The position numbers and the translations under genes are program-made. From assembly GCA_951406725.2 (NCBI GenBank), contig OX597824.1, positions 77,748,001 through 77,812,000 of the forward strand: a stretch of 64,000 bases of DNA, in the 5' to 3' direction. Of the stretch, positions 3,597 through 52,790 are shown in pieces (within the stretch, counting starts at the first letter, position 1; every line of letters starts with the position of its first letter). Source of the stretch: Octopus vulgaris (lineage: Eukaryota). The notes below the pieces were generated by a model. That model searched no databases and had not been told where the DNA came from. It saw only the letters and a list, made by a program, of their open reading frames with translations.

Positions 3597-3648
3597 GTCT
3601 CCGATGAAGGGATATAATTAATAAATATCCTGGAAACAGCTGTAAGAC
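3597..3648 (+). ncRNA. minimal type-I hammerhead-ribozyme-like motif in a ~190-bp repeat (about 3525-3715)
   Basis: gtct-CCGATGA-a-gggatat..atatcct-g-GAAA-C-AGCT-G-TA-agac. Stem I is gtct/agac, stem II is present, stem III is palindromic and the triplet is GUA. The core is CCGAUGA rather than CUGAUGA. Confidence 0.65.
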
Positions 3649-4147
3649 CTTCTATCTATAAATGTTCTCAAGTTTACACAGCCTTGTTTTTTTTTATCTC
3701 ATTACGAAATAAAATTTATATATATATATACTCAAGGATAAAATCGTTTATCAAGTAGCCAGCATGTATTAAAACGATACAGGTATCAGATAATATAAAA
3801 TATATAATTATGTAAATATAATTATAATGAGGGTACTAATGAGTAGCTCCACATGCTAGAAATAGATGCCAAACGGCTCGAAGTAATACATTATTTACCT
3901 CTTTAGCACGGGCTGACAGTGAAGGAAGTGAACAAAAAAGATGTTTTAAAAGAAGGGTTTCGCCATAGATCGATTTCTAGTTAACGATGTAAATCTCTTT
4001 ACTATCATTAGTATAGTACAACTCATTGTTCATAATTATAAACATCAATACATACCCATACGAATAATATGTATCCACAAGCGCATAAAAAAATGTTCAC
4101 ATTCATATACCACGTGGGTATACGACCAAAAATAATACTGGAGTGGA

Positions 4148-4483
4148 TATACTGGTCGGAGTAATTTATATTTATGTAAGACTAAATAAAAAGTAAGCAA
4201 CGTTTTGTACCGTGAAATTCATCACAATATATTTCAACAATGCGCAAATTTTATTCATTAAAGTACGTACCTTTACAATTAATACATATTTGCCAACGAG
4301 TTACAAGCTTGTTTATTCCGGTAACATAAAAATCTGGAGTTCTGGAAGCGATGAACTCTTTGAACGCACTTTTACTTTCGGTTTGATTTTTGAACTCTTT
4401 CTCTCGTAGGAAGCCATCAAGGGGATTGAAAAAGTGGTGGTCGGTAGGAGAAAGATCTAGAGAATAAGCTCGGCGAGGAAGTG
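4148..4483 (-). mobile_element. mariner transposase 3' remnant with probable TIR
   Basis: Minus-strand translation LPRRAYSLDLSPTDHHFFNPLDGFLREKEF...FYVTGINKLVTRWQICINCKGTYFNE* matches the mariner YSPDLAPSD motif and C-terminus. Confidence 0.85.
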
Positions 4484-4484
4484 C

Positions 4485-4865
4485 TGCACCTCAAGGAAGT
4501 GTTTCTACTATGGCCTCAGGCCACCAAAGGCTTGTGAGTGTATTTGGCAAATGGAAACTGAAGAAGTCCATCGTATAAATGTGTGTGTGGATGTGTGTGT
4601 GTCTTTGTATCTGTGTTTATCTTCTTCCGTACCACCACCGCTTGACAACCATTAGTGTGTTTGCTTCTCCCGGTGTGTTGCTATGTTGGTGTGTTTTCGT
4701 CTCCTTGTAACCTAGCGGTTCGGCAAAAAAGAGAGCGATAGAATAAGTACCAGTCTAAGAAGCATAAATACTGGGTAGATTTACACGGCTAAAATAAATT
4801 CAAAGCGGTTGCCAAAGCATGGGCGCAGTCTAATGAAACAAGCAAAAGGTGAAAGATAAAAGATA
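4485..4865 (+). mobile_element. SINE family A, 5'-truncated and diverged
   Basis: Similar to the family A body and tail. Confidence 0.7.
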
Positions 4866-5976
4866 GTATTAAAATTGTTTTGAAAATACATATAAATATA
4901 TTCAATAGGTAAGATATAGGAGGGGATATAGAGATTAAATTAGGAGATAATATTAAACAATAGTAATTTTTAAATAGGGTTAAAAGCTCAAATACCACAC
5001 AAAAATGCATGGACCTTCATTTTAATCGAATTCTGTATATATATAGGATCCCATCGCACTGTCTTATGCAGTCAGAAAGTTGCTTCAACAATTGGCTTTA
5101 AAATATTAAGATATGGCTCGCAAAATTAATAACCTGTTTGAGCTTCCATAGACTGCTTGTATATACATAAGATCATGTTTTCAAAAATTGATTTGAGACT
5201 CCATAGTTCTCTTATACAATTTGTATTCTGTCATAAAAATTTGTTTCCAAAATTAATAACCTGTTTGAACTACAATAGTCCTATCATATTGTCAGTTACC
5301 AGTTTTTAAAAACCAGCTTGTAGAATTTATTGATTAGTTGAGCTTCCGTAGTTCTCTTAAAAAGATAATTGTTCGTTATATGAATTGGCTCCCAAAAATA
5401 ATAACCTATTTGAACTCCTTTTTATACCACCAGAAGCTTGTTTTAAAAATTGGCTCCACACAATGAAAACCATGTCCAACATTATCAATATATACATATA
5501 CATATACATACATATATATATATATATATATATATATATATATATATATATATATATATATATATATATATATACACGATGAAGCAATTAAACGTGCTGC
5601 CTATGTTACGGTACTTGTCTAATGACCGCTTCTCATCGACACAATTAATTACACTGATTAATTAAAGTCTAAAGGTACCATTGTAGAATAGATTTCAGAT
5701 ATGAAGGGATGAATACCTCGGGGATTCTATTGTAAAATTCGTTCTCTGAAATTAGTTCGTTTCACATTTATTGTTTAGCATCTGCTTGTAACGACACCCT
5801 GTGTTTGTATTCTATTCAAAATTTTAAACAGTTGCATGAGTATCCTACACCCATACACCCACACATATATATAGTTGTGTGTGTGTGCGTGTATGTGTGT
5901 GTGTGTGAGTATGAATTAACAAAATGAAATAAAAATCCAAGGCTGTGAAAGATTTCTCAGCATTTATAAATAGAAG

Positions 5977-6024
5977 GTCTTACAGTTGTTTCCGGGATAT
6001 TTTATATGTCCCATCATCGGAGAC
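5977..6024 (-). ncRNA. hammerhead-like motif, second copy of the 3597 repeat (about 5920-6105, opposite strand)
   Basis: Reverse complement reads gtct-CCGATGA-t-gggacat..atatcccg-GAAA-C-AACT-G-TA-agac. Flanks are homologous to 3525-3715. Confidence 0.6.
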
Positions 6025-49879: not shown

Positions 49880-50345
49880 GCTTACGTGTGTTTTGAAACT
49901 GAGGCACTTATCACTATGAACAACGAGAACTTTTGTTGGTGCTTCATGTGAAATTGCTTTACCAGCGATGAGGACATTAGGAAGAAACTGCTTGGGCTTT
50001 GTGGAGAAAAGCATGTTGCAGGGATTTTTTGAATTTTATTGATGATAAGCCGATTAGAAATAAGCCATTGATAAACTTTATCCAGTTCTGAATTAACTGT
50101 ATTGAAGAGGGAGGGAAAGTCCTGGTGACTAATAAAAATAGTAGTCATCAGAAAAATGTAGACATTTTAATAAATTAGTAGAATTGCATATATCATTTAT
50201 TTAGGTAAGGAACAGTAACGGGCCCAGTATTGACCCCCTAAGGGACGTCTAGATTTGTAGTGGGTAATGGAGATTTTTATGCTTCAACTGTAACATACTG
50301 TGTACGCTGTCAGAGGTATGTTCCAAACCAATTGTTAGGAATATG
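49880..50345 (-). pseudogene. L2/Crack-group LINE reverse transcriptase remnant
   Basis: Reverse complement encodes GSILGPLLFL..INDICNSTNLLKCLHFSDD/TTIF...VNSELDKVYQWLISNRLIIN. Confidence 0.8.
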
Positions 50346-50899
50346 AATGGAATTATAATTGATGACTAAGAAATGAGCCAAGGGCTTGGGAATGTTTTAT
50401 TCAGGAGCAGGAATCAATTATAAGATTATAAGAATCTGTGAAGTCACATCTTTTGAGAAAATAATGAATATTTCATCTTACAAATTAACATGAAATTGCT
50501 GTTTTGTGCTAAAGGCTTAAACCGTGTTATTGTGTTTATTATTTTTTGAAATGATTTAAAACATTTTAAAACTTCTTCAACTCTTTGCGGAAGAAAGCGG
50601 CATTTGCATTTCCCTTCATTCATAAAAAAAAGTGAAGTGACGTGTGGTGGTGGTGGAATGTATACATAATATTTCGGTGGAGGTACATTGGTTGGGGTAC
50701 CCGGAACAACTGTGTTGACGGATTCCATATTTCTGTGGAACATGCAACATTATTTCATAAAAATGAAATAATAATGATGAAATAATAATGAAATAAAAAT
50801 AGAGACGAAAATAAAACGAATGTTAACTTATCTTTTCTTTCCTCGGCGAAAATTACACAAAACTACATCTTCCAAATAAGATGAAATCCGCGTTTGATA

Positions 50900-51390
50900 A
50901 TACCTATGTATAGGAGGTAACCTGAAACTCCTATACTGCCCTTCTTCAGTGGCAACTTTCATGGAATCCAACAACATTAGAGATTTGGGAGTAATTGAGA
51001 ACAACAGCATAAGCTGGGCCACTCGTATAAACAGCAGAGTTGACATGGCTCGCAGAATATGATCCTGGATTCTCAGAACTTTCCAGCCGAGAGATATCCA
51101 CATCATTATCCTGCACTTCACTTTTGTCCGACCCCAAATTGAATACTGTTGTCCACTGTGGTCTTCCCACGCGAAACAAAGTATCATGAGAGATGAAGCA
51201 ACTCAAAGGTCAATTGCAAAAAAGATAGATGGTATGACAATCCTTGACTATTGGGGTCGACTAGAAAAGCTCAAGCTTTATTCTCTCCAACGCTGTTGTG
51301 AGTACTACAGCATCTGCATGATGTGGAAAATATTCCATCAGCACTGCCCAAATGATTTTGGTATCATCTTTAAGATACATCCAAGATATA
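50900..51390 (+). pseudogene. CR1-group LINE RT C-terminal remnant
   Basis: RDLGVI..SW..I..A...ILRTF..RD...FVRPQIEYCCPLWS...EATQR..K.IDGM..LDYWGRLEKLKLYSLQR. Confidence 0.85.
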
Positions 51391-52175
51391 TATAAAATAT
51401 ATCATAGATAACGGTACAAATAAGAGTTCTTGCTAATTGGATGAATAAATAATTCGCTACATAAAAAAAACTGTAGAATATTCACCAAATCTTGCATTGA
51501 TCTACGAAAACGCACATTTGTTATCGAAAGATGCAGAACACAATTACAGATGTTGATTTGAAATTTTATGGAACAGAAATATATTCTATTTGAGGTTTCA
51601 TGTACGACCACAGAATATCTAAATAAATGTTATGAGGAGATCTTAATTAGAAACTATACATTATTCATAAATATAAAGAAAAAATACATGAATGTACTCT
51701 TAAATGTATATCGTTTTTTGCGGTCGAAATTATTAAGTTTTACGCTTAAGGCAATATACACATATAGATACATACATCAATATACGTATATACACACACA
51801 TGGATATATACATACATACATACATACATACATACATACATACATACATACATACATACATACATACATACATGCATTATTATGGCTGGCCCCTCGTTAT
51901 TGAGTATGGCTATTGCCCGAAGCTTAACTGTTACTGGTGCTGTGATCGAATGTGACTTTTTAGCTCACCCAAATATCTACAATGTCTTGTACAAAATTAG
52001 CAACTAAAACATTTACTGGTACTAGCCGGCTGTAGTTGTAACTGCAATTGTAGTTGTAACATACATGCATACATACATACATACATACATACATACATAC
52101 ATACATACATACATACATACATACAGATATATATATATATTTATATATATATATATATATATTTATATATATATA

Positions 52176-52379
52176 TATAAAGATAATTTAAATATAGAGA
52201 TATTCTATTGACAATCCAATAATTTATTTATATTACAATATTAAATTAGATACTATGAATATAATATATATCATCACATAATATTACATATCATACTCGT
52301 AATATCTAATGTAATATTGTAATAGAAATAAATTATTGGATTGCCAATAGAATACCTCTATATTTAATTTATCTTTATA
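52176..52379. repeat. AT-rich fold-back palindrome next to (TA)n
   Basis: TATTCTATTGACAATCCAATAATTTATTT pairs with AAATAAATTATTGGATTGCCAATAGAATA; arms are ~85 bp. Confidence 0.85.
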
Positions 52380-52505
52380 ACTGAATCAAACCAATATATA
52401 TATGTTATCCAACTGAAGTACCAGTGAATTAAGTGTTTAAAACACCCCTTTGAAGGATTTCTTTCCCTTAGTTTGTTACTATATATATATATATATATAT
52501 ATATA

Positions 52506-52790
52506 TATACTGTTGTGTCTGGGGAGAGTCATTCTCTTTTAGTGCCTTATTATTTAACACACGCACCGGTAAAATTTCCACTTATTTCTTATTTATATTT
52601 TCTAAAATTTTATTTGCGTCTTGCAACCTTTTCAATAGTCTTGACTCTTGAAAAGACTATTGAAAAGGTTGCAAGACGCAACGAAAATGTTTAGAAAATA
52701 AAAATAAGAAATAAGTGGAAATTTTACCGGTGCGTGTGTTAAATAATGAGGCACTAAAAGAGAATGACTCTCTCCAGACACAACAGTATA
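52506..52790. repeat. near-perfect 285-bp palindrome next to (TA)n
   Basis: Arms 52506-52642 and 52653-52790 with a 10-nt loop. Confidence 0.95.

Follow-up and report, generated by a model that had tools for sequence, protein, structure and literature searches.

A stretch of 64,000 nucleotides of the Octopus vulgaris genome (NCBI GenBank assembly GCA_951406725.2, contig OX597824.1, positions 77,748,001 to 77,812,000 of the forward strand), hereafter called the window and numbered from its first letter, carries a layer of small motifs shaped like hammerhead ribozymes that lies above the level of chance. Very probably these are the hammerheads of the 3' pseudo-long terminal repeats (pLTRs) of several families of Penelope-like elements (PLEs), at least six of which end at TA tracts, and whose copies are 5'-truncated and mostly decayed.

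An earlier reading of the sequence (the original prediction) had named eight motifs built as (C/T)(T/C)GANGA, stem II, GAAAC, palindrome, GT(A/C/T). All eight were found, 4 to 13 nt off the coordinates quoted for them and with the quoted helix III centres correct; the grammar holds for most, the exception being 41382-, which reads GAAG instead of GAAA. Lettered by family and given as C3/H17 positions with the strand, they are A1 (3601/3644+), A2 (6020/5981-), B (8488/8564+), C1 (9751/9773+), D (12691/12615-), E (17136/17107-), F (17821/17893+) and G (41382/41356-). The window has 36% GC, about 16% of it (10,246 of the 64,000 bases, which were masked) is short tandem repeat, and dispersed repeats, including Tc1/mariner and non-LTR reverse transcriptase (RT) remnants, are abundant. 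Both strands were scanned with descriptors, the controls being 60 dinucleotide shuffles each of the whole window and of 200-nt blocks. The loose grammar gave 10 matches, against means of 1.4 and 1.8 in the whole-window and block shuffles, respectively (maxima of 4 and 7); with helix II required there were 5 matches against 0.12 and 0.22 (maxima of 1 and 3); the full type I descriptor gave 3 (3601+, 6020- and 17821+, that is, only three of the eight named motifs) against 0 and 0.03 (maxima of 0 and 1). A relaxed scan, with a scoring of our own in which core changes are permitted, was compared with 40 block shuffles; this score is somewhat favourable, because it was devised after the motifs had been seen. 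Its ten best positions are the eight named motifs and two further ones, 18252- and 18306+, which form a structure that we call H. Scores of at least 18 were reached by 6 motifs, against 0.225 in the shuffles (maximum 1), and scores of at least 12 by 10 motifs, against 1.35 (maximum 5). In this window the motif frequency exceeds that of shuffled sequence in both kinds of scan. Candidates at 56302+, 34202- and 28448- were rejected for having no helix I, lying inside an L1-like open reading frame (ORF), or having a broken core.

Kinship among the motifs was studied with 91 pairwise local alignments over 14 segments, with 60 shuffles as control. The strongest pairs are the two arms of H (z = 71), C1 and C2, the latter a second copy of the C family (z = 48), A1 and A2 (z = 48) and the two arms of E (z = 32). 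B and F are weakly alike in their 3' halves (z = 7.6, above all 60 shuffles), and the alignment of C1 to E is marginal (z = 4.9). A1 and A2 share 78% identity over 176 bp, with aligned spans that nearly coincide; the homology in the C family runs from about 17382-17625 to 9600-9860, and C2 retains the boxes of C1. From these alignments it follows that the eight named motifs represent six or seven families. They had been called unrelated, which is not the case: 3601 and 6020 belong to one family, 8488 and 17821 are distant kin, and 9751 has a second copy at 17535. Several distinct families do sit at TA tracts, as had been proposed, but their number is six or seven rather than eight. A pattern for family A had no match among metagenome contigs.

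The association with TA tracts is strong. A (TA)n tract of at least four units lies within 200 nt 3' of the cleavage site in six of the eight named motifs, compared with a fraction of 0.19 for random positions (P = 0.001), and on either side in all eight, compared with a background of 0.34 (P = 0.0002); the distance to the 3' tract is 55-109 nt in six of the ten motifs. The layer is not, on the other hand, window-wide: seven of the eight named motifs are clumped in 14.8 kb (P about 0.005, for a width chosen after the fact), as are nine of the ten loci when the added motifs are counted. Such crowding could be taken as a sign of host-domesticated ribozymes under selection at this locus, but it fits an insertion ground rich in TA, and the window copies, as shown below, are inferior to the majority of their families at catalytic and pairing positions; we therefore regard domestication as extremely improbable. 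Expressed as a density, the three strict motifs amount to 47 per Mb (95% confidence interval 10-137) and the ten motifs to 156 per Mb (75-287), in a window that is clumped and was singled out for its motifs, for which reasons the genomic load cannot be sized from it.

Three of the elements carry an inverted 5' arm on a truncated body. E (17053-17294) and H (18161-18397) are each a head-to-head pair of one unit, and the inverted tail of F (17734-17781, - strand), a copy of the F 3' tail placed at the F 5' end, matches the F 3' end at 26 of 26 positions by BLAST and at 45 of 48 when counted by eye on the arms. In E the motif proper (17105-17138, - strand) is in the left arm, while the right arm (core at 17221-17227, + strand) has a deletion of 12 nt spanning helix III. 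H, which was absent from the original prediction, has cores at 18252- and 18306+ and abuts an (AT)39 tract; its helix III is odd-numbered, a type tabulated for elements of the Hydra clade of PLEs, and that of the + strand motif resembles, by eye, the helix III tabulated for Hydra-2_aMil. The centre of H also scores as a microRNA-like hairpin in Rfam, below the gathering threshold. Long inverted arms at TA tracts, in a window with remnants of Tc1/mariner transposases, are what one would also see if the foldbacks were miniature inverted-repeat transposable elements (MITEs) of DNA transposons inserted at TA, with an incidental hammerhead look, and two foldbacks at 52153-52403 and 52510-52786 do adjoin TA tracts without a hammerhead core. 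However, the arms of E and H are complete hammerhead units that show a covariation or a helix III type already in print, and the left arm of F copies its own tail and is absent from the family contigs described below, so that the MITE explanation appears very unlikely. The two hammerhead-less foldbacks may themselves be either MITEs or inverted PLE ends without a ribozyme.

Family-level evidence comes from contigs of four public runs, aligned to positions 17050-18075 at a likeness of at least 80%, of which 6648, 8364, 3988 and 645 were placed. The 645 contigs are those of run X15, which may be an RNA run, and are not taken as evidence of expression; for positions 3400-3900 no run of RNA was listed. 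Allele shares are given below as percentages of the summed depth for X1, X5 and X4, the three larger runs, in this order; they are taken from 40 variant rows, 18 further ones being unseen, and a contig of the E family may fit either of its two arms. In run X1 the summed depth is 356,000-822,000 over F and 49,000-103,000 over the left arm of E, compared with 25 and 48 for two contigs that match the locus exactly, this contrast being the only use that we make of depth. The E and F families are highly repeated, and from this depth a very large genomic hammerhead load, as the original prediction supposed, is plausible. In the E family, 17131 is C>T at 94, 93 and 90%, which gives a U3-A8 core, and 17120 is T>C at 99, 98 and 99.5%, which closes a 4-bp helix II; the corresponding changes are seen in the mirror arm at 17229, 17238 and 17239. 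In the F family, 17820 is T>C at about 100%, closing helix I with a C-G pair, and 17893 is A>C at 69, 95 and 76%, yielding a GUC site. Since the majority letters are the better ones at pairing or catalytic positions, the E and F copies of the window are worse than the majority of their families. The U3-A8 combination is the covariation reported for schistosome PLEs (PMC4209133), and supports a PLE origin. The C family stays uncertain, because C2 has a lower depth and none of the listed rows falls over its motif; positions 17645-17749 have zero depth and are uninformative. Between F and the (AT)39 tract, 17960-18075 is a further high-depth repeat in which there is no hammerhead motif.

The ends of these contigs are also informative. 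Loose ends behind 17294 (43 and 41 records) and behind 17951 (44) consist of (TA)n in runs X5 and X4. Contigs of the F family extend 5' of 17782 with differing letters and without the F left arm, and end at 17951 in (TA)n; those of the E family extend upstream of 17180, again with differing letters, as expected for truncation. This bears directly on the possibility that some families (E, F, H and A) are short, non-autonomous, self-amplifying elements, retrozyme-like or foldback, that use Penelope-like proteins in trans. The elements are only 150-250 nt long, A1 and A2 align over a nearly equal span, contig depth across E and F is very high, and pLTRs have been proposed as the source of animal retrozymes (Li et al. 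2026, 10.64898/2026.07.22.740005). Set against these points are the 5' continuations just described and the absence of any motif in a tandem array, both among the 150 of 280 rows of Tandem Repeats Finder (TRF) output that were listed and in a self-BLAST; the tandem layout is what defines non-LTR retrozymes. For these reasons the retrozyme origin that had been entertained is not borne out, and we consider self-amplification in trans unlikely. Window elements and non-LTR retrozymes (PMC7229834; 10.64898/2026.07.22.740005) do have in common that both are short and non-coding, contain a type I hammerhead and are tied to PLEs; the retrozymes are defined by tandem repeats, canonical tertiary contacts between helices I and II and circular RNAs, whereas none of these features is seen in the window.

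Returning to PLE 3' ends, the individual motifs differ considerably in their state of preservation. The best is F (17782-17951, + strand; core at 17821, predicted cleavage site at 17893), with an intact core, 14 of 16 pairs in helix I, a long helix II and a perfect palindrome. A1 (3597-3648, + strand), in an element of about 200 nt flanked by TA tracts, has the type I shape with a helix I of 4 bp, a helix II of 7 bp, a perfect 8-nt palindrome at 15.1-16.1, H17 = A and a U4C core (CCGAUGA); A2 (5977-6024, - strand) has the same core and one mismatch in the palindrome. B (8486-8567, + strand) has an intact core and a long helix II (10 of 11 pairs), with helix I and palindrome decayed. C1 (9746-9778, + strand) has an intact core, a helix I of 4 bp past a mismatch and at most one pair in helix II, and is weak alone; C2 (17530-17561, + strand), absent from the original prediction, is more decayed. 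A second conserved CUGAUGA-like box is found in this family about 125 nt upstream of the motif (9628-9640 and 17408-17418), and also in loose ends of contigs; the sequence might therefore fold in another way, in which helix II would be very long. D (12613-12693, - strand) has a U3 core, a long helix II (-21 kcal/mol), a perfect 8-nt palindrome and a helix I of 2 bp, and is 57 nt from (TA)n; a near-complete Tc1 element (12744-14377; inverted repeats of 227 bp, 91%, and a transposase remnant) is inserted directly 5' of it. G (41352-41386, - strand) has a U4C core, the change A15.1G, helices I and II of 4 bp and (TA)n at 102 nt, and is weak alone; 78 bp upstream of it are duplicated at 40714-40791. 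Overall, the core CUGANGA...GAAA...UH is intact in B, C1, F and both motifs of H (H- and H+). Helix II folds in A1, A2, B, D, F, G and H+, and in E at family level; it is irregular in H-, and this stem, often followed by one unpaired base after A9, was not found in C1. Helix I runs to at least 4 uninterrupted pairs in A1, A2, F, G and H-; in B, C1, D, E and H+ it has 2 pairs or its first pair is broken. The palindrome at 15.1-16.1 is perfect in A1, D, E and F, odd in H+, and has one mismatch in A2, B, H- and G. The grammar as such matches the published PLE consensus, in which CUGANGA goes with one unpaired base, helix II is long, helix I is short and 15.2-16.2 is palindromic, and this argues for a PLE parentage of the families.

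A PLE lineage is also represented in the window by coding sequence. The GIY-YIG remnant proposed at 7260-7955 is real (profile match with independent E-value, iE, of 9e-19): positions 7330-7936 (- strand) hold the 3' fragment of a Penelope-like ORF, with frameshifts and stops, that comprises the end of the linker between RT and endonuclease and the GIY-YIG endonuclease itself. Three-frame translation reveals a CxCX5C linker, with CxxC ahead of E and CxH behind N, and CCHH is absent; as this signature matches the published clade diagnostics, the remnant belongs to the Hydra clade. Naiad or Neptune identity was rejected for lack of CCHH and on the linker type. The RT portion of this remnant is absent from the window. 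Its tail extends to the TA tract at 6992-7013, and a hammerhead in this tail was rejected as too decayed to score. The remnant peptide (7497-7847, - strand) has 7 matches among 1.84 billion protein representatives, of which 6 were aligned; the seventh, P0003, is repeat-rich, matches an off-frame part and was dropped. The peptide itself has no Pfam GIY-YIG match, one of the six homologues passes the GIY-YIG cut-off, and a word-index search with the peptide among longer proteins gave no match. A profile of the homologues led to 10 longer proteins, of which two full-length ones of 704 aa (P0008 and P0013) carry RW[KR], DKT, YxDD, CxCX5C, CxxC and CxH, which are diagnostic of the Hydra clade. Five of the eight metagenome loci fetched with P0013 (L001-L005) carry a hammerhead, and the other three seemingly stop before the 3' end; in L001 the ORF stop is followed by the hammerhead and, about 30 nt further on, by (TA)n. 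L001:1-2748 is a complete Hydra-type element of the form pLTR-ORF-pLTR, with identical hammerheads in both pLTRs and an end in (TA)n. Collinear but weak pieces at 44647-45552 (+ strand; iE 0.013-0.17) probably represent a second, older Hydra-type endonuclease remnant, interrupted by a short interspersed element (SINE) at about 45009-45419; behind it, 45595-45655 is a very decayed hammerhead-like stretch (relaxed score -0.5).

These observations can be interpreted in the light of what is known of PLEs. The GIY-YIG endonuclease of the element would nick (TA)n, and its reverse transcriptase would start near the 3' end of the RNA and usually stop early, which would leave 150-250 nt, consisting of the hammerhead and a tail of 40-110 nt; a second, inverted copy would sometimes be laid at the 5' end, giving foldbacks such as E, F and H. 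Where a complete element stands in tandem, the palindromic helix III would allow two ribozymes to pair, and the precursor RNA would be cut. Both 5'-truncated copies in inverted position and pairs of hammerheads on opposite strands are on record for PLEs. For Schistosoma, Cervera and de la Pena (2014; PMC4209133) reported about 2,000 + 1,300 motifs, and for Xenopus about 9,000, as heterogeneous, mostly solo minimal hammerheads tied to truncated PLEs and including opposite-strand pairs; thousands of such motifs per genome are thus already known, and the hidden layer of the original prediction is not new. The motifs of the window share with these minimal type I hammerheads a long helix II, a short helix I, the unpaired base after A9, the palindromic 15.2-16.2, the U3-A8 variant, the presence of many families per genome, the prevalence of solo copies and the spacing of opposite-strand pairs (100-700 bp). 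Unlike them, families A and G carry C4, outside the CUGANGA consensus, and helix II is very long in several motifs (54-58 nt); there is no cephalopod in the content of that paper that was compared. In Acropora there are more than 6,000 hammerheads in 16 families (PMC7229834).

Craig et al. (2021; PMC8557442) give (TA)n as the target in 26 of 27 Hydra families, of which one comes from Octopus bimaculoides; their tables include hammerheads built on the grammar seen here. The endonuclease signature of the remnant, the targeting of (TA)n, the hammerhead near the 3' end, the odd helix III of H and the inverted 5'-truncated copies are all shared with this clade (including Hydra-1_Obim); no motif of the window is identical to the tabulated Hydra-1_oBim hammerhead, when compared by eye. 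In contrast to the Hydra clade, A, B, D, E, F and G have even palindromes of 4-8 nt, and these families could stem from other PLE clades. Poseidon PAc of Anolis (PMC11167929) resembles the window elements in having a hammerhead in the pLTR, an AT-rich cleavage preference and an extension of both strands; it has been studied experimentally, its hammerhead needing protein and being dispensable for insertion in vitro, whereas the window is known from sequence. Such hammerheads are described as cleaving slowly in vitro, U4C is described as a slow natural viroid variant, and 235 Rfam hammerhead-1 hits are reported for the giant squid; PMC6765202, PMC3088659, PMC13282606 and PMC6962438 were also compared. 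In the open-access literature we found neither an octopus survey of the hammerhead layer nor a PLE report of U4C, and this variant is only a lead, because it rests on two copies in one family. Overall, the finding is explained by a known kind of element, and the general phenomenon is known from many animal genomes.

Several points weigh against the assignment of the motifs to PLE 3' ends. No motif is joined to a PLE ORF within the 64-kb window, and in the pairwise local alignments neither remnant tail (7330-7936, 44647-45552) aligns to any motif element. Therefore, although a Penelope-like lineage is present, its role as autonomous partner of the motif-bearing elements, also part of the original prediction, is not demonstrated. 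Searches with the Rfam hammerhead models at E<=10 gave no match in three regions (A1, E/C2/F and H), A2, B, C1, D and G not being searched separately, and with the whole window there is no hammerhead among the best 150 of 327 rows, which hold microRNA-like microsatellite noise instead. Family-level data exist for E, C2 and F only, while A, B, D, G and H rest on one or two copies; summed contig depth is not copy number; and in F the 40 variant rows listed include no further core position, but with 18 rows unseen invariance of the core is not proven. Five of the eight named copies have a core change (U4C in A1, A2 and G, U3 in D and E), and because of this the solo copies here are probably mostly dead. 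Finally, 9751+, 17136- and 41382- score 13-14 in the relaxed scan, close to 13, the median of the best scores in individual shuffles; each of these, taken alone, could be a chance match. One may go further and ascribe the weaker motifs, namely 9751, 41382 and in part D or B, to chance within AT-rich repeats, so that only A, E, F and H would be real, all the more as C is nearly without helix II and G breaks GAAA. Yet the second copy of C retains the same boxes, G combines two 4-bp helices with a position 102 nt 5' of (TA)n, and E, equally weak alone, is real at family level, so that we find this rather improbable. Chance of this kind trims the number of motifs; it is compatible with PLE 3' ends as the source of the others and does not replace them.

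The value of these results lies mainly in annotation, as they suggest that many of the short TA-anchored repeats and foldbacks of this genome are Penelope-like 3' ends recognizable by their ribozyme. A 2026 annotation of octopus repeats counts 893 recently active unclassified SINE families, and makes no use of the word ribozyme. Should the U4C families prove genuine and active, animal ribozymes would be undercounted by hammerhead descriptors; F and other young families offer testable substrates for the role of PLE hammerheads. A bolder proposition, which we consider possible though on the whole doubtful, is that this genome holds one of the densest animal hammerhead loads (tens to more than 100 motifs per Mb), much of it hidden in short repeats filed as unclassified SINEs or MITE-like foldbacks, including whole families with a U4C core that are missed by CUGANGA descriptors and Rfam and that may still cleave as dimers or with the protein of the element.

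The window holds further repeats. Tandem, partly duplicated SINE-like copies occur at 5-567, 6377-6758 and 31172-31475, with a 183-bp unit (99% matches at 5-567) and no hammerhead; the tandem at 5-567 was rejected as a retrozyme, being a dispersed SINE-like family without a motif in either scan. The SINEs of the window resemble what we take to be octopus SINEs. A family with nested and tandem partial copies and common ends, possibly Helitron-like, is found at 24941-25362, 30058-30967 and 56992-57402. A non-LTR retrotransposon remnant with RT and zf-RVT occupies 32275-35037 (- strand) and ends near simple repeats, and a second non-LTR element, at 37523-39691 (+ strand), has 320-bp direct repeats (86%) among (TAA)n tracts.

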